The translations under genes and the position numbers were made by a program. Of a DNA stretch of 64,000 bases, positions 2,251-63,754 are shown in pieces; within the stretch, counting starts at the first letter, position 1, and each line of letters opens with the position of its first letter. The stretch is from an uncultured Candidatus Saccharibacteria bacterium (GTDB lineage: Bacteria; Patescibacteriota; Minisyncoccia; Phycocordibacterales; DATDWN01), in assembly GCA_964576615.1 (NCBI GenBank), contig CAZNUU010000001.1, forward strand, positions 95,309 to 159,308. Direction: 5' to 3'. The notes beneath the pieces are model-generated. The model did no database searches. It saw nothing but the letters and a program-made list of their open reading frames with translations, and was not told where the DNA came from.

Positions 2251-3834
2251 ATGTCTGAAGAAAATTTACCAAAGACTATATCTGGTGCTACGCCAGAAAT
2301 TCCATTTCAGATGTATGAAGTTTCTGGTCAAGACACGATTAGCCAACATGCTTTCGAGAGATATATAAAAGACAGAGACCAGGATGAGAGTATTTCAAAA
2401 AGTGCGGAAACACGAGAAGAAAAAAATTTACTTAAAAAAATAGACGCAGTCAATTATGCAAATAATTTTGGCCTTATTTCAGAGAACTTAGATAATCCGG
2501 ACCCTATTATGCAAGAAAGGGCAGCTGAGCTTATAGCTTTTATTCCCTCGGATAAACGACTTGAGCTTATAATGCGTTTCCTTGAAAAAGGTCCGAATGT
2601 ACAGGTTGCGGCACTTGAAGGTCTTCAACATTTAAGCCCAGAAGTGTGGGAAAATATTTTACCAGTGATCAAGGATAGAATTGATCTTGGACTAAATAGT
2701 AATGAGGAAGAAAAAGTGATAATGGCAATAAAAATGATTCACTATATATACAGTAGCGATGATACATCAAAATTTATAATGCGGGTTCTGACAGATAAAA
2801 TTGAGTACTGGGAATTATTAAGAAGTTCACTTTTTGATGCAAACGAGGAAGTAAAAAATTTTATCGACGAACTAGTGTTGAAAAAACTGAATTCAAAAGA
2901 CAATTCAGATAAAAAAATGGTAGTGGGTTTACTTCAGTTTGGACATGCCGAGAAAATACTTGAAACTATAATGAAAGTCACATTAGATGATGATGAATTT
3001 GCTTTTAAAATGTCCACTATAATATTTTCAGCTCCAGAAAAGGATCAGCTTAAATTTATTAGGACCATATTAGATAGGGACATTCGCTATCACGAACTGG
3101 CCGCGGAACTCATTAGTTACATGCTTGTAAATGCTCCGGTGGAAGAGGATGAACCTGAATTTAATGCAGTTTTAGATGAGACTATGAAAAAAGCCAAGGA
3201 AGATCTACTAGATGAGAACGTAGAAGTTCGACGAACTGGGGCTAGGATAGCAGTCTTACTTGATCCCAGTAATGACAATGAATTGACGAGCTTGGCAATT
3301 GAGAGAGGAGTCAGCGATGAGCTAGTTAAAGCACCTATTTATGCTAACACTGGGGTTAATAAACAGAAATTCTTTCGGGCTGATTTTTTCAAAACTGGAT
3401 CAGAGACAACTTTATTAGGGGGAGAACTAAAAGATAAAACTATTGTAAGACATATTGAACCAGGGGCATTCCTCACCTGGCAGAAGTTATTTGAGAATTA
3501 TAAATTGTGGCAGGACAATGGTTTCGATTATGTCCCGATCGAGCCGATTCACTCATATAGACTTGATAATAATGGTCTGGTAGATGTTTTTTGTGGAGTG
3601 CTTGATCTTAATCTAGAAGACTGGATGGAAAGAAGCAAGGCACATAATAAAGAATTGACAGAGCAGATGGAAAGAATAACAGGGGTATTAGAAAAGTCTG
3701 GCATAGAGCATGGCCACCCCCATGAGAAGAATTTTTGTTTGCGCTTTTGGCGAGATTCAAGCGGACAAGTAGATTTTAATAGAATCCCCAGACTTTATTT
3801 GATTGATTTTGATATGGCTGCATCACTACCTTAA
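2251..3834 (+). CDS. Hypothetical protein: helical-repeat N-terminus plus C-terminal atypical kinase-like motifs
   Basis: AT-rich native-style gene. The C-terminus has HGHPHEKNF, resembling the HGDxHxxN catalytic loop of APH/CotS/RIO kinases with Asp replaced by His. It is followed by LYLIDFDMA, a DFG/IDFD-like motif. Confidence 0.6.
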   Translation: MSEENLPKTISGATPEIPFQMYEVSGQDTISQHAFERYIKDRDQDESISKSAETREEKNLLKKIDAVNYANNFGLISENLDNPDPIMQERAAELIAFIPSDKRLELIMRFLEKGPNVQVAALEGLQHLSPEVWENILPVIKDRIDLGLNSNEEEKVIMAIKMIHYIYSSDDTSKFIMRVLTDKIEYWELLRSSLFDANEEVKNFIDELVLKKLNSKDNSDKKMVVGLLQFGHAEKILETIMKVTLDDDEFAFKMSTIIFSAPEKDQLKFIRTILDRDIRYHELAAELISYMLVNAPVEEDEPEFNAVLDETMKKAKEDLLDENVEVRRTGARIAVLLDPSNDNELTSLAIERGVSDELVKAPIYANTGVNKQKFFRADFFKTGSETTLLGGELKDKTIVRHIEPGAFLTWQKLFENYKLWQDNGFDYVPIEPIHSYRLDNNGLVDVFCGVLDLNLEDWMERSKAHNKELTEQMERITGVLEKSGIEHGHPHEKNFCLRFWRDSSGQVDFNRIPRLYLIDFDMAASLP

Positions 3835-4476
3835 ATCAAACATCCACCACTCTTCACTTTGATGAGGAATCATGTGAGAATGAACTATTCTATAGTCATA
3901 CTCTTTAACCATACTATGAAATTTTTCAATCGAACCACCGATGTTGACCCAACATGCGTAAATAGTTCCTTCTTTATTTAAATAATTTTTGGCAACTTGC
4001 AAAAAACGACGAAAAGTATTGAACCCGGGATCATAGATTGCTTTTTCGCGCAGCTCATTTACAGGAGCATCAATAGAGGGTAAATAAGCAACGATTGAAT
4101 CAAACTTTTCGAAAATATTTTGAAATAGATCCGATTCAATTACTTTAGATTTTGTGACACTATATTTTTTAAAATTTTCGTTTGTGTTCCCACATGCCCA
4201 AGGGTTAATGTCGACTGCCACCACTTCTCTTTCACCAGCCTGGTGAGCAATAATGCCTTGAATTCCTGTTCCCGACCCCATGTCCAAAACTTTCTTATCT
4301 CTGTACATTAAAATATTTTTTGGAGAGACACCTTCTATTTTTGAAATCTGCCTAGGCACAAACACATTTGGAAAAACAACGAGTCTAAATCCACGATAAA
4401 TTATTTCTTGCTCTTTATCGTAGAAGTGCTTGTGCACTTGTGCACCTTTGGCTGATCGTGTTCTTACCTGCGTCAT
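3826..4476 (-). CDS. Class I SAM-dependent methyltransferase (small-domain MTase)
   Basis: VLDMGSGTGIQGI motif I, VVAVDINP post-I and FDSIVAYLPS motif IV-like segment. Confidence 0.75.
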   Translation of the reverse strand: MTQVRTRSAKGAQVHKHFYDKEQEIIYRGFRLVVFPNVFVPRQISKIEGVSPKNILMYRDKKVLDMGSGTGIQGIIAHQAGEREVVAVDINPWACGNTNENFKKYSVTKSKVIESDLFQNIFEKFDSIVAYLPSIDAPVNELREKAIYDPGFNTFRRFLQVAKNYLNKEGTIYACWVNIGGSIEKFHSMVKEYDYRIVHSHMIPHQSEEWWMFDLR

Positions 4477-4532: not shown

Positions 4533-4561
4533 TTGACATACTTATAAAAATAGGTTAGTAT
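4533..4561 (+). promoter_or_regulatory. Sigma70-like promoter for the 4583 cassette gene
   Basis: TTGACA (4533-4538), a 17-nt spacer, then TAGTAT (4556-4561). GGAGG SD at 4574-4578. Confidence 0.4.
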
Positions 4562-4582: not shown

Positions 4583-4882
4583 ATGAATCTGAACGGCAGA
4601 AGTTACAAGGCCGGGAAGGTGACTTTCAAGGTCCTCGAGGGTGAGGACTACCCGGCAAAGAAGGTGAGCGATCGATACGCCAAGATCCTCAACATCAAGG
4701 CGGGGTGTCTGGTTGGGGTGAAGTTCCATTCGACAGTAATTACGAACATCACCTACGACAAGGGTGTTGTACGCCTCAATAAGATCGAGGTGGACGGCAA
4801 GGTGATCGACAAGGCGGGCAAGATTTCCGAAGCTCTCGGCGTCGATGCACCCCTCATCCCCTACGACCTCTCGGAGCTCTAG
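4583..4882 (+). CDS. Hypothetical protein (GC-rich cassette gene)
   Basis: GC-rich ORF with consensus promoter, GGAGG SD and a hairpin spanning its stop codon. No known motif. Confidence 0.5.
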   Translation: MNLNGRSYKAGKVTFKVLEGEDYPAKKVSDRYAKILNIKAGCLVGVKFHSTVITNITYDKGVVRLNKIEVDGKVIDKAGKISEALGVDAPLIPYDLSEL

Positions 4883-4898
4883 TGAGCTCCACTGCCCG

Positions 4899-4932
4899 AG
4901 GCTGACCGGTATACCCGGCCAGCCTTTTTTAT
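4899..4932. terminator. Bidirectional intrinsic terminator between convergent genes
   Basis: GGAGCTC-TAGT-GAGCTCC hairpin at the stop, then a GGCTGACCGG...CCGGCCAGCC hairpin followed by a T-run (4925-4931). Confidence 0.5.
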
Positions 4933-7900
4933 TTAATGATCACGCCACCTTGATTTCTTTTCATACGCCTAAATAGTTTGTAGCTTTTCTTGGGCCTGTA
5001 CCTTACAAAGAGATTATCGATTACCTCATCATCTGGTATTGCCTCAATGCTGCCATGTTCCTTCTTCATCCCCTCCCCCTTGGCAATAATCTCTTGCTCC
5101 TCAACATATGTCTTTTGATCTTCCTCGTTAAAATCGATATGAAACTGCTTACCGCCTAGTGAAAAATCAGTAATTAGTCTTCTAGAATCTTTTAACCCTG
5201 CACCTTTTTTCGATTTCTTCGCTCGTCTTTTAATTTTCTCGCCTTTCTCGTTTACCTCGATAAGCTTAAAACTATTAGGCTCTCCTTTGGACATGTGGCC
5301 AACAAAGTCCTCGACAGAAAAATTATCATCAATATTTTCAACTTTCTCCAAAGTAATGAATTTAGACTGATAGGATTTCCCGACAACAATCTTCCCGGTA
5401 TAGTCCTCGACCACCTTAAAACCAAGCACTCTTATGTTTTGCTTAAAACCTTCCCAATCGCTAAAGTCATCTGTGTGAACAAGATCAATAATAGCTCTCC
5501 CCCCAACTTTCAAAACTCTGGACATCTCCTTCAGAACTTCCACCCGATCAATCCTACCTTTTGTCGGTTTGAAGTCAAAATAATGCAATGCGAATGTTAG
5601 ATTTAGATAATCAAATGAATTATTTTCGAACGGCAAACGAGTTAGCTGCCCTATGACCCTTTTCATACCTTCTTCTTTTTTAAAATGAGCTGGGTTAATA
5701 TCTGTGGCTGTAATTCTCCCAGCCAGTTCATCCCCACTATGCCTCTTTAACATCTCCGGTCCCGATGCTAGATCTAATATGCTTAAGCTATCAACGGGTT
5801 CGCCATTGTCTTCTATAAACTTTTTCAGAACAGTAGTAGCTATTCTGTTGGCATTCGACTGATAGTTACGTCTGCCTAATTCTTGGTAGGCATCCGCATA
5901 CTCTTCTCCTCTGGTCATCTCTTTACCTTGGATATCGAGATAACGCATGAATTCTTTTTCTCCAATCTCCCAAACTTCGCCGAATATTTGCATCAATTTT
6001 TCCCACTTGTTGAAATAATACCTTGCGAGTTCCGGATTAATTTCCTTATTCTCATCTTGATCTTCTGTCTTTTCAATTATTTCTCTCTCAAGTTCTGTCA
6101 AAGGAACTCCGCGGAGCAATTTTTCCACAGCTCTCTTTTTCATGGCGATAAATTGGTGAATCCCTTCTTCAATAGTACCCTTACCAATAAAAGTTTTGCT
6201 CTCGAGCTCATGCTTCAATCCGGGACGATAAACACGAGCTAGCTGTTGAGCTTTGATGTATTCAGTCCATGGCTCGTTATAAAAATAAACCATCTCCCCA
6301 CCTGAAAAATCAACTCCTTCGCTAGCTGTTTGACCTGAGACAACAACCAACATTTTTTCATCTGAACTATTCAACCTATCTTGAATTTCTTGTCTTGTCT
6401 TCTTTGAAGTATTCTTTTCACCCTCGATAATTTCAACATTTACATTCGGTGGTAAATTTATTTTTTCAATAATTGAACCGGGCCCTCGAATTATATTTTC
6501 AACATAATCATTAACGAACATAACAATTTTGTCGACCTTTTGAAAATCATCCTGTAATTCCTTCTCTACTCTCTTAGCTTTTGAGCAAATCACCCCTGGG
6601 GTCGGATCTACTATTTCGGGGTTCATTAGAAACTGGCGTAGTTTTTGGATTTTTTGTGTCGCGGTAAGCTCATCCTCTTCTTCCAAAATCGCCCCATACA
6701 CATCTCTCTCTAATTCAGTTAAATCTACATAAATTGGTTCATGTTCTATATGCTGGGGCATCTCAACACTCTCTCTCAAACTTTTCATCTGCATTCTAGG
6801 AACAAGCAGACTTCTCAGATCTATGAGATCACCGTTTATAATACTCCTGACCATCTCAGAGTTTTTCATTTCATTAAATTTCTCCGGATAAAGTAATCTT
6901 AGTATTAGAGCAACATCCTCGATCTTGTTTGGTACTGGAGTACCAGATAAAATAGCTAAGTATTTATCGTCCCCTTCAATTTTCTTAGCTAAAGAAAGCA
7001 GGAGCTGCGACCTTACCCCCTCATTTACATTTTTAAACTTGTGAACCTCGTCTACAATTAGCATACCTGGGTCAAGCTTCATGAGCTCAGTGGTATACTC
7101 CTCTGTCATTCTTTCGTGGGAGATAACTATATAATCATAAGTTGATGTATCCCGCTGTAGATCTTCTATACTTTCTACAACTAAAACGCTTGGATTCTCT
7201 CCAGGTTTAAAATAGGTGTGCAGATAACCTTTCTTTTTTTTATTATCCACCCAAGTTGAAACTACATTGCTAGGTACAACAACTAGAGCCTGTTTAATAC
7301 CGAGTGATTCTTTGGTTAAGATCGCAGACGCACTTTTGCCGAGACCCATTTCATCCGCGATTAGTATTTTCTTTTTATCTGAAAGCTCTCTTATATTTAT
7401 ACGCTGGTTTAGATCTGGAAAATCTCTCCCCTCTTTCAGTCCTAGAACTATTTTCTCTGGTTTTTCTATAGACAATAGTCCTGAGTAATACTTTTCAAGT
7501 TCAGTGATAACAAAATCGATATCTGTACTTCCTAGATTCGCTGACTTTTGTCTTACCCCCCCGATATATTCCTCAATGATTTCCTTGTCTTGCCTGTCTT
7601 TATTTTTTCTCTTTTCGAGGTGGTAATATTCCAGACAAGCTTCTTTCATTATCTCAAGAAGCCCTTCGCGTAACTTCGGATCTTTGACAAACTCAACTGC
7701 AATTGGTAAATCATCCACTCTGAAGCCATGCCTTACAACCAAAAAATCTCCGATGTAGTCCGCCATAAGACTTTTAACATATTCCTCTTTGACTGGAAGA
7801 CCTCGAAACTCTGGCCTAAATTTGTATAGAATATCTAGGACTTTGGATGGACCAAAGAGCCCGATAAGACTTCTAAACTGCTGGGCAGTTAAGCTATCGC

Positions 7901-9089
7901 CTTTTTCTACATCTTTTAACAGATCCTCTAAATCGGTTTCTAATTTTTTATTCTTATCTTCTTTATTTAGTTCATCTTTCCTTAGGCTTACTTGTTCTCT
8001 AATAAAATCAGCTAGGGGTTTATGTATAAAAAGAGTTACTGTATTATTCTTTTCCTTATTGTAATAGAGTTTTGCTTGTCCTGGAAAGTTTGCATCAGCT
8101 TCTGCAGCTATCCTTTTAATTACTTTCTTTTTTATGGATAGTTCATCAGCTAAATTGTCAATCGAAATAGAACCCTCGGGAGGAGCCTGCATTTCCTTTA
8201 TATCAATTTTAATTTTATCGATGAGTTCAGGTGAGAAATAAGTATGCACACCGTTTAAATCCCGGTGTTTCTTTTCTAAACTTTCGTCCTTTTCAGTATA
8301 TTTTTTGGCAGCCTTTGTTATGGTCGAATAAGATACAGCAAGTTCTTCAGCTAAATCAGGCACGGTTCTCCAACCTTCCGGTGGTGGGGGATATTGCCTA
8401 AAGTTCTCTAATATTTTTTCAACTAATTGATTGGAATAAAGCTCATCGCCCTGACCAATATCCTGCGATGTTCTCTCCAGAAACCAATCTGGGTGTGAAT
8501 GTTTATATGTCCTAGCAAATGAACGGATTGAGTTATCCGAGATTGTGATCCCTTCACTTGCTAATTCCTCTTTTATCTCTACAGCAGTTTTCCATTTCTG
8601 AAACTCCCGCACTTTTTCTTTTATTATCTCCTCTAAATCTGGATGAATATATTCATGAGTAGTTTTTCCTTTTATGTCTTTACGAGTTAAGATCCAGTCA
8701 GGATTGGATTTTCTGTATGGTTCGATTATCTTATTTATCCAGTTGTCACTAATACCAAGTCTATTGGCAATTTGATTTTTGGTATGCCATTTTTCCTCTA
8801 TTTCTTTTATTTTTTCTTTTTTTTCAATTTCACCCTTGAACCTATCATGGAGTACTTCTGCTAACTCAGGTGAGACGTATTCACTTTTTTTCCCATCCCT
8901 GGGTGTAAATTTTCTAAAATATTCTTCATGTTCAGATCTATACTCTTCGGCAAGTCTTGCTACTTTGGTAGGGCTAATTCCCCATTTTTTAGCTAATTCG
9001 ATCACGGTGTACCAATTTTCTGGAGGTGGTAAACCTTCCATATAATCCAGAACTGAAACATTTTGTGGAGTTGGAAATCCTTCTGTCAT
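4929..9089 (-). CDS. Multidomain protein: 4-5 repeated HTH-like modules, SNF2-family helicase, class I SAM methyltransferase and a basic C-terminal tail
   Basis: SNF2 motif I LIADEMGLGKS, motif II LIVDEVHKF, motif III LSGTPVPN and helicase-C QQLARVYRPG. MTase motifs ILDLASGPE, TATDINP and LPFENNSFDYLNL (Methyltransf_11-like). The N-terminal third carries repeats of roughly 60 aa of the form W-T-x3-LA-x2-LG-IS...HPDW. Confidence 0.85.
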   Translation of the reverse strand: MTEGFPTPQNVSVLDYMEGLPPPENWYTVIELAKKWGISPTKVARLAEEYRSEHEEYFRKFTPRDGKKSEYVSPELAEVLHDRFKGEIEKKEKIKEIEEKWHTKNQIANRLGISDNWINKIIEPYRKSNPDWILTRKDIKGKTTHEYIHPDLEEIIKEKVREFQKWKTAVEIKEELASEGITISDNSIRSFARTYKHSHPDWFLERTSQDIGQGDELYSNQLVEKILENFRQYPPPPEGWRTVPDLAEELAVSYSTITKAAKKYTEKDESLEKKHRDLNGVHTYFSPELIDKIKIDIKEMQAPPEGSISIDNLADELSIKKKVIKRIAAEADANFPGQAKLYYNKEKNNTVTLFIHKPLADFIREQVSLRKDELNKEDKNKKLETDLEDLLKDVEKGDSLTAQQFRSLIGLFGPSKVLDILYKFRPEFRGLPVKEEYVKSLMADYIGDFLVVRHGFRVDDLPIAVEFVKDPKLREGLLEIMKEACLEYYHLEKRKNKDRQDKEIIEEYIGGVRQKSANLGSTDIDFVITELEKYYSGLLSIEKPEKIVLGLKEGRDFPDLNQRINIRELSDKKKILIADEMGLGKSASAILTKESLGIKQALVVVPSNVVSTWVDNKKKKGYLHTYFKPGENPSVLVVESIEDLQRDTSTYDYIVISHERMTEEYTTELMKLDPGMLIVDEVHKFKNVNEGVRSQLLLSLAKKIEGDDKYLAILSGTPVPNKIEDVALILRLLYPEKFNEMKNSEMVRSIINGDLIDLRSLLVPRMQMKSLRESVEMPQHIEHEPIYVDLTELERDVYGAILEEEDELTATQKIQKLRQFLMNPEIVDPTPGVICSKAKRVEKELQDDFQKVDKIVMFVNDYVENIIRGPGSIIEKINLPPNVNVEIIEGEKNTSKKTRQEIQDRLNSSDEKMLVVVSGQTASEGVDFSGGEMVYFYNEPWTEYIKAQQLARVYRPGLKHELESKTFIGKGTIEEGIHQFIAMKKRAVEKLLRGVPLTELEREIIEKTEDQDENKEINPELARYYFNKWEKLMQIFGEVWEIGEKEFMRYLDIQGKEMTRGEEYADAYQELGRRNYQSNANRIATTVLKKFIEDNGEPVDSLSILDLASGPEMLKRHSGDELAGRITATDINPAHFKKEEGMKRVIGQLTRLPFENNSFDYLNLTFALHYFDFKPTKGRIDRVEVLKEMSRVLKVGGRAIIDLVHTDDFSDWEGFKQNIRVLGFKVVEDYTGKIVVGKSYQSKFITLEKVENIDDNFSVEDFVGHMSKGEPNSFKLIEVNEKGEKIKRRAKKSKKGAGLKDSRRLITDFSLGGKQFHIDFNEEDQKTYVEEQEIIAKGEGMKKEHGSIEAIPDDEVIDNLFVRYRPKKSYKLFRRMKRNQGGVIIK

Positions 9090-9283: not shown

Positions 9284-10414
9284 ATGGGCAAGAGTTCGTT
9301 CGTCAACATGACGCATGCGGCTCTGGACGAGACACCCGCGAAGGAAATCATTCTTCGTGGCGTCGTCTCGCCGGCATCGCTTGGCTCACTGATGGTCGAT
9401 GACTATCAGCGAGAAGCGGCACCGCTTTCGTCGCTCAAGGGCATGCTCAAGGCGTTTGAGCAGGGCAGAACCCTGCCGGACATCGAGCTGGGCATGCGCG
9501 GTCAGCGTTTCGAGGAGAGCAAGACCGAGTCAGGTCTTTTTGTCCTCATGGACCCCGTCTACATCGTCGATGGGTTCCAGCGCGTCACCGCCGGGATGCA
9601 CCTTCAGGCTACCAAGCCCGAAGTGCCGATCCGCCTCGGTGCCACGATTCATTTCGGCACCACCAAGGAGTGGGAGTCCGAGCGCTTCCACATCTTGAAC
9701 ACGCTTCGGATGAAGGTCTCGGCCAACGTCCTCCTGCGCAACAAGCGGGAGACGAGCGAAGCCATCGCCATGCTCTACAGCCTGTCGACGACGGACAGGG
9801 GCTTCGCCCTCCACGATCGCATCAGCTGGAGACAGCGGATGACACGTGGGGAGCTCATCTCGGCGCTTTCCCTGGCAAAGGTCACGGGGTTGCTCCATTC
9901 TCACAAGGCGCCGAGTCGCCGTGTGCAGATGGACGAGCTCGTGCCGGCCCTGGACAGGGCTATCGAGATCTTCGGTTCCCACATCATGCGTGCCAACGTC
10001 GCGACGTTCTTCTCGCTCATCGACGAGTGCTGGGGCATCAAGCAAGTCCAGTATCGCGAGGGAGCGATCTACATGCGCGGCGCATTCCTGCACGTCCTGG
10101 CCCGGATTCTCTCCGATCACCACGACTTCTGGCGCGAGACCGATGAAAAGCGGCTCCTCGTTGAGGCACCGCTCCGTCGCAAACTCGCCCAGTTCCCGAT
10201 CCACGACCCGGGCGTCGTGAATCTGGCAAGCTCCGGTGGCAAGTCGAAGGACATTCTCTACGACCTCATCCGCAACCACATCAACAGTGGCAAGCGGTCG
10301 AAGAGACTGACCTGTCGTTACGGCGAACGGAGCGTCCCGGGTCTCGACGACGAGACGGATGATCAACCGGAATCGTCTAGCGTCGAGGAGCCGGCGACCA
10401 TCGTCTGCTCGTAG
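9284..10414 (+). CDS. DUF262/DGQHR-like (ParB/Srx-fold) domain protein, GC-rich cassette gene
   Basis: DDYQRE and IVDGFQRVTAG segments match the QR and DGQ(Q/H)R signature pair of DUF262/DndB-like domains. AGGAGTG SD, TTGACA-17-TAGTGT promoter and a perfect terminator. The many overlapping opposite-frame ORFs are high-GC artefacts. Confidence 0.6.
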   Translation: MGKSSFVNMTHAALDETPAKEIILRGVVSPASLGSLMVDDYQREAAPLSSLKGMLKAFEQGRTLPDIELGMRGQRFEESKTESGLFVLMDPVYIVDGFQRVTAGMHLQATKPEVPIRLGATIHFGTTKEWESERFHILNTLRMKVSANVLLRNKRETSEAIAMLYSLSTTDRGFALHDRISWRQRMTRGELISALSLAKVTGLLHSHKAPSRRVQMDELVPALDRAIEIFGSHIMRANVATFFSLIDECWGIKQVQYREGAIYMRGAFLHVLARILSDHHDFWRETDEKRLLVEAPLRRKLAQFPIHDPGVVNLASSGGKSKDILYDLIRNHINSGKRSKRLTCRYGERSVPGLDDETDDQPESSSVEEPATIVCS

Positions 10415-13613: not shown

Positions 13614-13628
13614 GTTTTGTGTGTTTTG

Positions 13629-13701
13629 TGGACCCTACCAGATTCGAACTGGTGACCTCCTCATTGCAAATGAGGCGCTCTACCAACTAAGCTAAGGGCC
13701 C
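13629..13701 (-). tRNA. tRNA-Ala (anticodon TGC)
   Basis: Canonical cloverleaf on the minus strand. Acceptor stem GGGCCCT/AGGGTCC with the G3:U70 Ala identity pair. Anticodon loop TTTGCAA, T-loop TTCGAAT. 73 nt, CCA not encoded. Confidence 0.9.
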
Positions 13702-13768: not shown

Positions 13769-13839
13769 GGGCCCATAGTTAAGTGGTATAACACATCCAT
13801 GGCATGGATGTAGCGGGGGTCCGATTCCCCCTGGGTCCA
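13769..13839 (+). tRNA. tRNA-Ala (anticodon GGC), T-loop slightly atypical
   Basis: Acceptor GGGCCCA/TGGGTCC with G3:U70. Anticodon stem CATCC/GGATG with loop ATGGCAT. T-arm GGGGG-TCCGATT-CCCCC has C at position 55, which is unusual. Confidence 0.7.
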
Positions 13840-13840
13840 C

Positions 13841-13905: not shown

Positions 13906-14607
13906 TCAAGCGAGTGGGATGAGCCCACGTTCGCGGAGCGTCTTAACCAGGTACAGGCCATCCTCCAGACTGCCGACTGGTCTCTGCGGTTCGCCGTCGT
14001 GCTCCGTGAGCATGGCGTAGAGAGACCGATCGGGCACCGGTCCCCACAGACCGTGCTCCGGATGGTAGTTCCACCAGTTGCGACCGCAACTGCAGGTGAA
14101 ACACTTTTTCGGGAACTGTCCTCCCCCGGTCATGGACTCCCACGGAAACGGTGCTGAGGCGTTAGCCCTCAAGAGTTCCTGACAGACACACGGCCCGGTA
14201 TACGCGAGCTTAGGACCGTCGTATCTCTTGACCGGTCTCGATTCTACGACCCCGTGTTCGTCCTTCGCAGAGGACATGTAGAGACCGATTTGGGTCTTCA
14301 CGAAAGCTTCGATCGCGTCATCGAAGACCTTCGCGAGCGTGAACATCGGGCGTCCAGCCTTGTCCTGCCACGAGAAGTGCCCTCGCGGGTCGTGTTGGAC
14401 ATCCCAGATGATGTCATCGGATTCGCGACGCCCCTCAGCGACCCATCTGTGGCTTGAAGCGCAGTTCTCGGCGTAATCCATTGTGTAGATCTGGCCAGAG
14501 ACCTTGGTAGTGCCCTCAGCTTCTGCGAAGGTCTCGATGCACAAACGCTGGGCCGTATAGACAGGTGAACCGAGGGGCTCTTCTCTGCCCATCCACTGAT
14601 AAAGCAT
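13906..14607 (-). CDS. Hypothetical Cys-rich protein (GC-rich cassette gene next to the tRNA-Ala genes)
   Basis: TTGACA-17-TAGTCT promoter and AAGGGAG SD on the minus strand. Cys cluster CVCQ...CFTCSCGRNWW. No family recognised. Confidence 0.5.
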   Translation of the reverse strand: MLYQWMGREEPLGSPVYTAQRLCIETFAEAEGTTKVSGQIYTMDYAENCASSHRWVAEGRRESDDIIWDVQHDPRGHFSWQDKAGRPMFTLAKVFDDAIEAFVKTQIGLYMSSAKDEHGVVESRPVKRYDGPKLAYTGPCVCQELLRANASAPFPWESMTGGGQFPKKCFTCSCGRNWWNYHPEHGLWGPVPDRSLYAMLTEHDGEPQRPVGSLEDGLYLVKTLRERGLIPLA

Positions 14608-22491: not shown

Positions 22492-22881
22492 GTGTTGAAA
22501 AGACACAAACGTGCATGGCGTGATCGAATCGGGCAGAAGTTCGTCGATCGACTGCCGGAAACGGTGGTCAAGGTCGGAAGTGACGAGTTCACTCGCCGTG
22601 ACCTAGTGATCGACGTTGAATCAGCCAACTTCCAGGCGGCTGCCGCTCTGGACGAGGCGATTCAGCACTTCCATCCGAAGGGCGTCGTGGAAGTCTCGAA
22701 GAGAGTCGATCAGCACATGCTTCGCGCCCGTGGCTACATCGGAGATACCGCCATCTTCGTTTGGTGCGGAATTCTCGAAGCCAAAGGCGTGAACGTGGAT
22801 CGCTGGCTCGACCAGGACTTCACCGAACGCAACAAGGAACGCAGGCGTAGACGCCTCAAGCGTCGCAATCGCAAGCGCTGA
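22492..22881 (+). CDS. Hypothetical protein with Arg/Lys-rich C-terminal tail
   Basis: GC-rich, GTG start, SD present. C-terminus NKERRRRRLKRRNRKR. Confidence 0.5.
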   Translation: MLKRHKRAWRDRIGQKFVDRLPETVVKVGSDEFTRRDLVIDVESANFQAAAALDEAIQHFHPKGVVEVSKRVDQHMLRARGYIGDTAIFVWCGILEAKGVNVDRWLDQDFTERNKERRRRRLKRRNRKR

Positions 22882-22957
22882 CCGCCGAACATGAAGCCGC
22901 CGAACAGGCACTTCAGGTTCGGCGGTTTTCATATATAAAATTTAGTTTACAAGCCTT

Positions 22958-23347
22958 TTGTACCATGCTAGTTTGATTTACGGAGGGCTCATGCCTAAAA
23001 TCGATATTCTGTTCGTCGTGGCTCTGGCACTTTACTCAATCGCGATCTGGTCAGCCAACCAGACCCGGATTGGCCTTTCACCTTTGAAGGTCATCGTCTT
23101 CGGACTCGCACTTGTCGCTGACTACACCGGCACTGTTGTCGTCTGCATGACGGCAAAAAACTGGTCTTGGAACGCTCATGCCATCCTGGGCTTCACTGCG
23201 CTAGGAATCATGGTCGTTCACTTCCTCATTGCTTTCTGGGCTGTCCTAGGAAACGAGGATGCCAAGTGGAAGTTCGAGAAGTATTCCATCCCAGCCTGGT
23301 TCCTGTGGCTAATCACATTCCTGAGTGGCATCTTTGTCCAGAGGTGA
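22958..23347 (+). CDS. Hypothetical four-helix membrane protein
   Basis: Four hydrophobic helices. Moderately GC-rich. Confidence 0.5.
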   Translation: MYHASLIYGGLMPKIDILFVVALALYSIAIWSANQTRIGLSPLKVIVFGLALVADYTGTVVVCMTAKNWSWNAHAILGFTALGIMVVHFLIAFWAVLGNEDAKWKFEKYSIPAWFLWLITFLSGIFVQR

Positions 23348-31373: not shown

Positions 31374-31883
31374 ATGCTAAGAGAGGGCCATTTAATCGCT
31401 GTCTGCAAGAGCAACCATGGCGGCTTGTACAAGGTGCCATGCGAAGGAGCAATCATCGACCCGTTCGGACTTCGCGGCGATTTTCATTGCCGTGAAAGGT
31501 ATTCCAGATTCCCTGGGATCTGGAAGGAGAACACCGATCGCCACATTCTCATCCTGGGGTGGGAAGCGATCGCGGCAGTGAACGAAGAGCTTGGCCTTGA
31601 TCCGCCACTCGTATTCGGCACTCTGGCCGAGAATTTCACTTCTTACGGCTTGGGTGACCTCTCAGACGTGCTGCCGGGCAGCAAGGTCATCATCCGTGGT
31701 CGTATTGAGTTGCGGGTGACCAAACAGAACAAGCCGTGTGGAAATACGGCTGTCCTTCATCCACTCTTCAATCGCACCATTTACAACAACGAGAAGAAGC
31801 GACGAGGAATCCTCTGCGCAGTTGTAAGGGGCGTGGGAGAGCACGTCGCACCAGGCGATGAGATCACCATCATTTCCCCGTAA
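31374..31883 (+). CDS. MOSC domain protein (GC-rich cassette)
   Basis: AENFTSYGLGDL...RIELRVTKQNKPCGN...GDEITI follows the MOSC beta-barrel pattern. GAGGTGA SD. Terminator downstream. Confidence 0.7.
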   Translation: MLREGHLIAVCKSNHGGLYKVPCEGAIIDPFGLRGDFHCRERYSRFPGIWKENTDRHILILGWEAIAAVNEELGLDPPLVFGTLAENFTSYGLGDLSDVLPGSKVIIRGRIELRVTKQNKPCGNTAVLHPLFNRTIYNNEKKRRGILCAVVRGVGEHVAPGDEITIISP

Positions 31884-44698: not shown

Positions 44699-44977
44699 TC
44701 AGATGTGGACGCCTGCAGCCAGCAACTCCTGTCGCTGAGCAAACACAGGAAACGCCCCAGGCCAAGCGTGATTGAGTAACTGCCCGCGGTTGCCGTAGGC
44801 AACCTGGCCTCGACGCTTGCTTTTCCAGCCAACCTCCCAGAAAGTTTCCTCGTCGGCATTTGTGATCCACACTTCGCCGGGTTGAATTTCAGGGTGATTG
44901 TTCTGGCTGAACTTCACTGAACCTGCTTTCCTCCAACGGCGCCAGAAGCGCTCGTCGTGCTTTTTGCACTGATTCAT
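44699..44977 (-). CDS. Hypothetical Trp/Arg-rich protein (GC-rich cassette)
   Basis: TTGACG-17-TACTAT promoter. GGAGGA SD 5 nt before ATG 44977 (the ORF track extends to 44995). Confidence 0.45.
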   Translation of the reverse strand: MNQCKKHDERFWRRWRKAGSVKFSQNNHPEIQPGEVWITNADEETFWEVGWKSKRRGQVAYGNRGQLLNHAWPGAFPVFAQRQELLAAGVHI

Positions 44978-45062
44978 GCCTATCCTCCAACCCAATAGTA
45001 ATATATAAATATAAATACGTCAAGGGCAGAACTTCTCAACTCAGTATTAGTAAACAGTACTA

Positions 45063-63406: not shown

Positions 63407-63754
63407 ATGAAGACGACTGCGACGCGAGATGTCGGCGGCTTCACATTTGAAGCCGAGCTAATTGACTCACCCGCGGCATCGTGTACCTTACCCCAGGACC
63501 TAAAGTGCCTTCTTTCAGTTGCAAGAGCTGGCAAGGTGCTTTACCTGGGTCAAGAAGTCATGCCCTCAGGCCATCCTAGTCTGCCCATACCGAGAACACT
63601 TCGAGGCTGGATTGCGGGAATTCACTTCCCCAACCCAGAGGATCGCAAGAATCGCATCCTCGATGTGTACTGGTTGGGCACGAGCAGGATCATGCAACTC
63701 AAGATGGAGATGGTCGAGGGATGCTCGTACGAGAACGAAAGAGGGGTCGCATGA
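63407..63754 (+). CDS. Hypothetical protein (GC-rich cassette)
   Basis: TTGACT-17-ATTATA promoter. GGGAGG SD. Two terminator hairpins downstream. Confidence 0.5.
   Translation: MKTTATRDVGGFTFEAELIDSPAASCTLPQDLKCLLSVARAGKVLYLGQEVMPSGHPSLPIPRTLRGWIAGIHFPNPEDRKNRILDVYWLGTSRIMQLKMEMVEGCSYENERGVA

Follow-up and report, generated by a model that had tools for sequence, protein, structure and literature searches.

What does a bacterium do with a single protein that joins tandem DNA-binding-like repeats to an SNF2 motor and a methyltransferase (MTase), and with which other gene does such a protein act? The question is raised by a 64,000-nucleotide stretch of DNA (the window; positions 95,309 to 159,308 of contig CAZNUU010000001.1, assembly GCA_964576615.1) from an uncultured Candidatus Saccharibacteria bacterium. 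A first reading of the letters, hereafter the original prediction, singled out a large gene of this kind and placed it in a DNA-modification or defense-like island. Our analysis argues for a different unit, in which the large gene and a neighbor of 99 amino acids (aa), unmentioned in that prediction, form a functional pair. Our tentative proposal, which may well prove wrong, is that the pair comprises a DNA-tethered, ATP-driven writer of methylpurines and a miniature reader or eraser resembling the alkyladenine DNA glycosylase AAG. The two genes and the signals beside them are as follows.

4929..9089, minus strand: large gene, 1386 aa; helix-turn-helix (HTH) repeat array, helical linker, SNF2 ATPase, Rrp8-like MTase and C-terminal domain.
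4583..4882, plus strand: partner gene, 99 aa, putative miniature AAG/Mpg-like protein, tail-to-tail with the large gene.
4533..4561, plus strand: promoter-like site of the partner gene (TTGACA-17-TAGTAT), with a GGAGG ribosome-binding site after it; identified by consensus only.
4898..4930, no strand assigned: terminator-like hairpin, G+C-rich and bearing a T-run, between the convergent stop codons of the two genes.

The partner gene is the sole conserved neighbor of the large gene. Neighbors were compared all against all at the window and at 22 more distinct loci that searches with the large gene had located (L001 to L024; 23 in total). A relative of the partner, detected with hidden Markov models (HMMs) and jackhmmer in six-frame translations, directly adjoins the large gene in 13 of the 23. 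It lies directly upstream and co-directional in nine of these, with gaps of approximately 40 to 155 nucleotides (nt), and directly downstream and tail-to-tail in four, including the window. A search with the partner profile returned 57 clusters with proteins of 99 to 262 aa, and each of five random look-ups from these clusters was found tail-to-tail with an SNF2-domain gene encoding 1317 to 1759 aa. Four of those five large genes have precomputed Methyltransf_11 matches, and the fifth (L088) carries MTase motif I in its sequence. Because the linkage persists across a change of orientation, it argues for a functional pair. A pattern search of metagenome contigs with the partner alignments, which are very divergent, added one short contig (L092, from the narrower pattern); beyond its small gene, the start of an ORF (L092:3648-4334) resembles by eye the N termini of the P0004 and L012 proteins, with their CxHGN...C..C motif, at a level below HMM significance.

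The promoter-like site is the top-scoring site of the scan, with 10 of 12 consensus matches, and the hairpin has a predicted energy of -19.7 kcal/mol (z -4.2) with a U-tail on the plus strand and of -26.4 kcal/mol (z -5.3) on the minus strand. The G+C content at third codon positions (GC3) of the partner is far above that of the adjacent large gene in 8 to 9 of 16 independent loci (0.77 versus 0.34 in the window and up to 0.86 versus 0.35 elsewhere); besides the window, these are L011, L015, L018, L020, L021, L023, L087 and L089. As this excess recurs across lineages, a single recent transfer fails to explain it.

How is the large protein built? The open reading frame (ORF) is intact, with an ATG start, and its Pfam domains confirm the three-part fusion of repeats, SNF2 ATPase and MTase that was originally described. 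The motifs named at that time (DEMGLGKS, DEVH, SGTP, QQLARVYRPG, LDLASGPEM, TDIN and FDY) were all found and are invariant or nearly so among relatives. One element was misplaced: the lysine-rich "tail" is not terminal, but a low-confidence linker that is followed by a conserved C-terminal domain of approximately 87 aa. From the N terminus, the protein comprises the following parts.

8001..9023, minus strand: five HTH-like repeats of approximately 60 aa each (repeat HMM; Pfam HTH_29; NCBIfam IS481/IS630; PHROG).
7410..7907, minus strand: conserved helical stretch linking array and motor, about aa 395-560 (approximate limits).
6648..7379, minus strand: SNF2 ATPase lobe 1, aa 571-814, with Walker A DEMGLGKS, DEVH and SGTP (Pfam SNF2-rel_dom).
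6219..6581, minus strand: SNF2 ATPase lobe 2 (Helicase_C), aa 837-957, with motif VI QQLARVYRPG.
5340..5828, minus strand: class I S-adenosylmethionine (SAM)-dependent MTase, about aa 1088-1250, with motif I LDLASGPEML, the ribose-binding acid in TDIN and motif IV FDY.
5193..5291, minus strand: lysine-rich linker, about aa 1267-1299, low confidence, partly a window-specific insertion.
4932..5192, minus strand: conserved C-terminal domain, aa 1300-1386.

The motor is, as first claimed, a complete SNF2/SWI2 ATPase. Pfam recognizes both lobes (SNF2-rel_dom, E value of 5.7e-17 and 62.2 bits against a cutoff of 24.9; Helicase_C, 1.5e-8 and 35.3 bits against 23.5), the Walker A, DExH, motif III and motif VI arginine signatures are all present, and motifs I, II, III and VI are kept in nearly all relatives. 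The best solved relative of the core is the DNA-bound, double-stranded-DNA-translocating Rad54-like protein of Sulfolobus (1z63; 1.9e-29). The helical linker ahead of the motor has no Pfam match and no sequence relative in the PDB; all family members keep it, even where the N-terminal array is of another type.

A repeat HMM built from the family counts five N-terminal units in the window protein (aa 23-79, 99-156, 164-226, 237-293 and 304-363), in agreement with the four to five tandem HTH-like repeats of the original prediction, and from 5 to 12 units in relatives. Pfam HTH_29 covers this region (5.8e-10; 39.6 bits against a cutoff of 28.1), together with weaker HTH models, and aa 94-207 align with the N-terminal DNA-binding regions of IS481 (1.6e-10) and IS630 (1.1e-8) transposases in NCBIfam. 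Among PHROG families, the repeats match HNH endonucleases or homing endonucleases and transposases. As the repeats within the window protein are just 21 to 36% identical, the array is old and not a recent duplication. In L012, L013 and L017, the HTH array is replaced by three other, mutually unrelated tandem arrays with units of approximately 80, 85 and 110 aa, located in the N-terminal 500 to 650 aa or so (L012:6658-11166, L013:5436-11159 and L017:8399-12886), while the N terminus of the L015 protein is non-repetitive; none of these four N termini has a significant Pfam match. The linker, motor, MTase and C-terminal domain are unchanged where the array differs. The N terminus is interchangeable, with at least four unrelated repeat types mounted on one conserved catalytic chassis, which suggests modular targeting. 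Several family members (P0004 and the L012 protein among them) also carry a cysteine motif, C-x-HGN...C-x-x-C, ahead of the array; it is absent from the window protein and is possibly a zinc ribbon.

The MTase domain shows the Rossmann-like fold, motif I, acid after strand 2 and motif IV of class I SAM-dependent enzymes, with a Pfam Methyltransf_11 match at aa 1105-1201 (4.6e-10). The motif I pattern occurs in 26 of 29 scanned proteins, each time as D-x-ASGPE(M/L/I)L. Conservation of this motif and of the SNF2 motifs across relatives suggests that both enzymatic cores are under purifying selection. The domain is not of the N6/N4 amino-DNA type, as originally judged from the lack of DPPY or NPPY: no (D/N/S)PP(Y/F) motif is seen, and no N6_Mtase, N6_N4_Mtase or MethyltransfD12 model of Pfam or NCBIfam matches. 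It is most closely related to the UbiE-type Methyltransf_11 enzymes and, more specifically, to Rrp8/nucleomethylin. When the C-terminal module (MTase plus C-terminal domain) is searched as a profile, nucleomethylin/RRP8 (2zfu) emerges as the solved protein nearest in sequence (2e-7), and this protein is also the closest in fold. Bud23, which makes 7-methylguanine (m7G), ranks third among the structural matches of the MTase. Yeast Rrp8 makes 1-methyladenine (m1A) at position 645 of 25S rRNA (PMC6085284). The Rrp8/Methyltransf_8 threshold (PF05148) is missed (16.9 bits against a cutoff of 27); thus, the MTase resembles Rrp8 in sequence, without demonstrated membership in Methyltransf_8. Farther along the chain, the lysine-rich linker is modeled with a predicted local distance difference test (pLDDT) score below 50 (model residues 268-300) and is missing from most relatives. 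The C-terminal domain is modeled with pLDDT of approximately 77 to 94 and conserved through its final residues ("G.VIIK") across the family; it has no Pfam match and no PDB sequence match.

Proteins of this build are rare and almost all lack a name; as in the original prediction, which recognized no described protein in this architecture, there is no widespread annotated family to which they belong. Among 5.8 billion protein clusters, a word-indexed search returned only nine full-length relatives (33 to 49% identity), and the C-terminal-module profile found at least 149 clusters at 50% identity (E of ≤1e-30) among 1.84 billion cluster representatives. In almost all of these 149 matches the module ends a protein of 1100 to 2635 aa, the shorter matches looking like fragments, and four large members checked in Pfam have SNF2, Helicase_C and Methyltransf_11 in identical order. 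The next-best matches, from Bacilli and Tenericutes, cover the SNF2 core alone (24 to 27% identity). Among 185,579 species representatives (one genome per species), the family is present in at least 18 loci. Depositors labeled these as Saccharibacteria/Saccharimonadales (six), Paceibacterota (two), Moraniibacteriota (one), "Patescibacteria group" (one) and "bacterium" (three); the remaining five carry the label "uncultured Gammaproteobacteria" as deposited. The module is chromosomal and, as far as records are labeled, belongs mainly to the Patescibacteria, or Candidate Phyla Radiation (CPR), most labeled records being metagenome-assembled genomes of Patescibacteria. In three genomes the large gene is split into two to four ORFs (L014:8327-15247, L019:3183-8455 and L024:9386-13082). 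These could be pseudogenes or assembly indels; a check by eye of L014 showed that the frames shift. In one relative, P0141 (L090:131-4834), the C-terminal domain is followed by an in-frame fusion to a complete sigma-70 factor (regions 2, 3 and 4).

Could such a protein have come from a mobile element? Polyvalent or anti-restriction proteins of phages, plasmids or conjugative elements include DarB-like methylase-helicases, and the large gene might be one of these lodged in a chromosome. The SNF2 core matches a large phage family, phrog_62 (6.5e-45), and such elements often encode methylase-SNF2 fusions (PMC5512222). However, searches with the C-terminal module found nothing related in 2.9 million IMG/VR contigs, 50,697 INPHARED phage records or 72,556 PLSDB plasmids, homologues are flanked by housekeeping genes with neither integrase nor transfer genes, and the MTase falls outside the EcoKI/TaqI adenine class and follows the helicase, the reverse of the domain order in the proteins of PMC5512222. 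The protein thus does not belong with the polyvalent proteins, and we regard this explanation as barely credible. A mobile-element origin was set aside on the lack of any match of the C-terminal module in the three collections.

What, then, is the partner? An AF2 model of the window copy (pLDDT of 96.6) has the fold common to AAG and the formyltransferase C-terminal domain. Of its 99 residues, 97 superpose on human AAG, so the predicted structure places it within the AAG fold; its top structural matches are the C-terminal domains of Fmt and ArnA. The window copy itself has no Pfam match even at E of ≤10 and no NCBIfam match, and a PDB profile search gave noise only. Its relatives reach further. 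The L011 partner attains Pfam PF02245 (Pur_DNA_glyco) with 27.2 bits against a cutoff of 27 over profile positions 2-130 of 181, a second family member matches the same model at 1.5e-3, NCBIfam models for DNA-3-methyladenine glycosylase recognize 4 of 16 members (PRK00802; best, 1.9e-6), and two have been named "Mpg" by JGI. Hence, the window partner is not a member of PF02245 by its own sequence, and its membership is transitive through these relatives. Comparison of the partner-family profile with human AAG in hhalign gave an E value of 1.6e-4 over 105 collinear columns; 36 residues of the human sequence used were verified against a PDB alignment. Taken together, sequence and model point to a miniaturized AAG-family protein. 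To our knowledge, if it is a glycosylase, it would be the smallest known protein with the AAG fold.

Residues E21 and Y23 of the window partner align with Glu125 and Tyr127 of human AAG. In AAG, Glu125 activates the water and Tyr127 stacks on the base, and the substrates are 3-methyladenine, 7-methylguanine and ethenoadenine (PMC12347255). The position of Tyr159, another stacking residue, is taken by Gly or by Val according to which alignment is used, and a conserved arginine (R64) lies two positions off the column of Arg182, for which a role has also been described (PMC12347255). In the 125-aa and 175-aa forms of the partner, a different and nearly invariant signature is shared. The partner is plausibly catalytic in the subfamily of the window and possibly a binder only in the others.

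How might the two proteins work together? In the mechanism that we tentatively favor, the transposase-type HTH array would tether the large protein to DNA, and the SNF2 motor would translocate on the duplex at the expense of ATP, presenting a purine base to the C-terminal SAM-dependent MTase. This MTase may be of a ring-nitrogen type, since its nearest relatives, Rrp8 and Bud23, modify ring nitrogens of rRNA purines. For an SNF2 motor that works with a DNA methylase, the methylase-helicase dyad (PMC5512222) offers a precedent. The AAG-like partner would then recognize the methylpurine made by the MTase and, in forms with the catalytic Glu and Tyr, including the window copy, excise it. The pair would constitute the writer and the reader or eraser of a "lesion-like" purine mark, with possible roles in marking the cell's own DNA, in regulated base excision or in conflict with foreign DNA, which is where a defense role of the two-gene module would fall. 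While domain anatomy, catalytic-motif conservation, family distribution, gene linkage and fold assignments are established by computation, we infer the use of DNA as methyl acceptor, the identity of the base, the coupling of translocation to methylation and the glycosylase activity of the partner.

A bolder form of this proposal, which we consider unlikely as it stands, is that the enzyme deliberately writes an N-methylpurine (m1A, 3-methyladenine [m3A] or m7G) in duplex DNA of Patescibacteria. The interchangeable repeats would choose the sites for the ATP-driven SNF2 motor, and an AAG-derived protein of 99 to 175 aa would read or excise the mark, giving a programmable base-excision or "lesion-as-signal" system unlike any described so far. 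All three bases are normally regarded as DNA damage.

Several observations weigh against the writer-and-eraser proposal. Assignment of the window partner to AAG, in the face of its missing direct matches in Pfam, NCBIfam and PDB sequences, goes through transitive homology and a predicted fold, and a profile restricted to the short forms does not reach significance against human AAG (hhalign E value of 0.17). There is no evident counterpart in the window partner of His136 and Tyr159 of human AAG, and most family members, namely the 125-aa and 175-aa forms, read "PQ" at the position of the catalytic Glu. On the side of the MTase, DNA would be the acceptor rather than RNA or protein, whereas the nearest characterized relatives act on rRNA or small molecules. 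The sigma-70 fusion of one relative points to transcription. Finally, no partner adjoins the large gene in 10 of the 23 loci located with it; for loci without the miniature AAG, HMM searches run on the neighbors with no filtering revealed no stand-in, and those neighbors are mutually unrelated.

Some of these points would be better accommodated if the large protein were a remodeler of transcription or of the nucleoid. The HTH array would position the SNF2 motor on chromosomal DNA, where, much like RapA, it would dislodge or recycle RNA polymerase or nucleoid proteins; the MTase would act on RNA or protein, and the partner would be a nucleic-acid-binding accessory and not a glycosylase. Besides the sigma-70 fusion, the rRNA enzymes nearest to the MTase and the loss of the catalytic Glu in most partners, this explanation is favored by the top structural matches of the partner (Fmt and ArnA) and by the surroundings of homologues, which consist of housekeeping rather than mobile or defense genes. 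These flanks include transketolase, pyruvate kinase, ftsZ/ftsA, nrdR, topA, dprA, ribosomal protein L1 and uvrD, as well as ksgA, D-Ala-D-Ala ligase and alanine racemase. However, the fusion is limited to P0141 on a single 5.1-kb contig, no sigma gene adjoins any other locus, and no RapA model of NCBIfam matches. The sequence models that recognize the partner family are those of AAG or 3-methyladenine glycosylase and not of formyltransferase, and the patchy distribution (at least 18 loci among the species representatives; 149 clusters) and swappable arrays would be unusual for a core transcription factor. We consider a remodeler, the main rival of our proposal, possible but doubtful.

The affinity of the partner with AAG, and the residues of the window copy that align with the catalytic Glu and Tyr, could alternatively indicate an alkylation-repair module, in which the SNF2 motor clears or scans DNA for the AAG-like glycosylase and the MTase-like domain senses SAM or has a regulatory role. 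CSB and chromatin remodelers assist excision repair. The SNF2 protein CSB is reported to stimulate AP-endonuclease activity (PMC1919475), and uvrA, uvrD, a RecG-like helicase and DNA ligase lie near some copies of the large gene, although these repair genes are not conserved between loci. Such a module would leave unexplained both the variable HTH arrays and the most strongly conserved feature of the family, an MTase that is apparently active and whose SAM motif is near-invariant, and it too must contend with the many partners that lack the catalytic Glu. For us, it is an improbable explanation.

It remains to ask what became of the island in which the original prediction placed the large gene. 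Three flanking genes were assigned to it.

2251-3834, plus strand: gene for a 527-aa protein, no significant match.
3826-4476, minus strand: HemK/PrmC-like "MTS" methyltransferase, with IVAYLPS as motif IV in place of NPPY.
9284-10414, plus strand: 376-aa gene, GC of 0.61 and GC3 of 0.80, with the string VDGFQRV, divergent from the large gene.

Spelled out, the island reading would have these genes and the large gene make up an anti-phage defense or restriction-modification-like island, akin to DISARM, Dpd or BREX, with a MTase, a HEAT/pseudokinase-like protein of 527 aa and a DUF262/DGQHR-like nuclease. In the 23-locus comparison, no relative of any of the three was found beside any homologue of the large gene. 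The individual assignments fared unevenly. Gene 3826-4476, whose 3' end overlaps that of 2251-3834 by 9 nt, does encode a methyltransferase, of the HemK/PrmC type (Pfam and NCBIfam), whereas the HEAT signal of 2251-3834 is not significant (E value of 0.096), and 9284-10414 matches neither DUF262 nor any other Pfam model at E of ≤10, nor any model of NCBIfam, PADLOC or PHROG. Because 9284-10414 also stands sharply apart in composition (GC of 0.61 versus 0.38; GC3 of 0.80, the genome being near 0.35), this gene probably represents an unrelated insertion.

The island reading can draw on this compositional anomaly, on the patchy distribution and variable arrays of the family, on defense-like genes within a few kilobases at some related loci (described below) and on weak PADLOC matches of the SNF2 core to DrmD (5.6e-11), BrxH and DpdE and of the neighboring MTase to mad2 (1.7e-18). 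The mad2 match covers the MTase core only, and the DrmD, DpdE and BrxH models match the generic SNF2 core only, far under curated cutoffs. The locus is not DISARM (NF038317 [DrmD], 25 bits against a cutoff of 610; neighbors unrelated), not Dpd, the system for 7-deazaguanine DNA modification and restriction (NF041062 [DpdE], 33.6 bits against 500; no TGT-like neighbor), and not BREX (just a 33-bit PADLOC BrxHI match on SNF2 lobe 1, with no other BREX genes). DrmA/B/C, PglX/Z and DpdA-C partners are absent, and no recognized nuclease effector is linked. Given the unconserved flanking genes and the scores far below cutoffs, we rejected the defense island as a reading of this locus and rate it as very improbable.

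Defense-like neighbors of the pair were seen in a few other genomes. In two of them (L088:13087-13999 and L091:4651-5559), a PLD-like gene of 160 aa lies within 1 to 3 kb of the pair, as does an XRE-type HTH gene, and a ParB_N-N6_N4_Mtase fusion lies two genes off the pair in another (L089:12324-13667). They are the sole neighbors of this kind and not general. Within the window, GC3-rich genes (0.60 to 0.80, where 0.30 to 0.40 is typical) are dotted across the sequence, giving it a mosaic composition; they lie at 1172-2155 (a pyridine nucleotide-disulfide oxidoreductase), 9284-10414, 13906-14607, 22492-23347, 31374-31883, 44699-44995 and 63407-63754. Two tRNA-Ala genes stand back-to-back, 67 nt apart, at 13628-13701 (minus strand; anticodon TGC) and 13769-13840 (plus strand; anticodon GGC).

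Whatever its mechanism, the locus contains a strongly linked and apparently undescribed gene pair, and the flanking "island" genes are not its conserved neighbors. If the writer-and-eraser proposal is true, the pair would represent a new type of SNF2-coupled nucleic-acid modification, with a writer of the rRNA type (Rrp8-like) instead of an N6-adenine or C5 DNA methylase and a partner drawn from the alkylpurine repair glycosylases. An enzyme would put in place bases that usually count as "damage," a dedicated partner would process them, and CPR bacteria, whose chromosome biology is almost unexplored, would possess a lineage-specific DNA-marking system. A 99-residue protein with the AAG fold would also be of potential interest for engineering compact glycosylase tools.

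How does the pair compare with systems already described? In the literature searched (full text), we found no description of the SNF2-methyltransferase architecture or of the gene pair; SNF2 ATPases and CPR methyltransferases are mentioned together only generically. A close parallel in one polypeptide is the methylase-helicase dyad, a SWI2/SNF2 ATPase with a DNA methylase in polyvalent proteins of phages and conjugative elements, of which P1 DarB is the archetype (Iyer et al. 2017, PMC5512222). The large protein shares with it the combination of a SWI2/SNF2-type ATPase and a SAM-dependent methyltransferase, the phrog_62 match and, as we infer, the logic of translocation-coupled methylation. 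It differs in that the MTase of the dyad is EcoKI/TaqI-like, N6-adenine-specific and N-terminal to the helicase, whereas here it is Methyltransf_11/Rrp8-like and C-terminal, and in that the gene is chromosomal in CPR-type genomes, with HTH arrays and an AAG-like partner, its C-terminal module being absent from the phage, plasmid and viral collections. DISARM (DrmD SNF2 with the DrmMI/II methylases) and Dpd (DpdE) also tie an SNF2-family ATPase to a DNA-modifying activity and share weak matches to the SNF2 core. In contrast to them, the present system scores far under the cutoffs, lacks the defining partner genes, has another class of MTase and is a two-gene module amid housekeeping genes.

The usual motif I of MTases is a glycine-rich loop, and the window protein departs from Rrp8 in reading ASGPE at this position. 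Rrp8/nucleomethylin (Methyltransf_8; 2zfu) is, moreover, a eukaryotic nucleolar enzyme that makes m1A in rRNA (PMC6085284) and has neither SNF2 nor HTH modules. With AAG/Mpg (PF02245), the partner has in common the predicted fold, relatives that reach the Pfam and NCBIfam models and, in the window copy, the residues aligned with Glu125 and Tyr127. Unlike AAG, it is half-size (99 aa, compared to approximately 200 aa in the human AAG chains in the PDB), with the 128-148 loop shortened and the C-terminal third missing in our reading of the alignment; the His136 and Tyr159 counterparts, and in most relatives the catalytic Glu, are lacking, and its gene sits beside an SNF2-MTase gene (five of five look-ups) rather than standing alone as a repair gene.

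Further parallels are by analogy. DNMT5 combines SNF2 with a C5-MTase and JBP2 combines SNF2 with a thymine hydroxylase, while DarT-DarG and the plant MTase/ROS1 glycosylase are writer/eraser pairs. The proposed system would resemble these in fusing a DNA motor to a base modifier and in having the mark removed by a dedicated enzyme; the catalytic domains and lineages are unrelated, and no homology is claimed. RapA/HepA, which recycles RNA polymerase, is like the large protein a chromosomal bacterial SNF2 protein in housekeeping surroundings, and the sigma-70 fusion of one relative of the window protein adds to the likeness. RapA is not known to carry an MTase domain or an HTH array, and the large protein matches no RapA model. 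SNF2-coupled modification of nucleic acids is thus already known, and what is new here is the unusual class of the MTase, the exchangeable arrays for targeting and a partner that belongs to a family of repair glycosylases.

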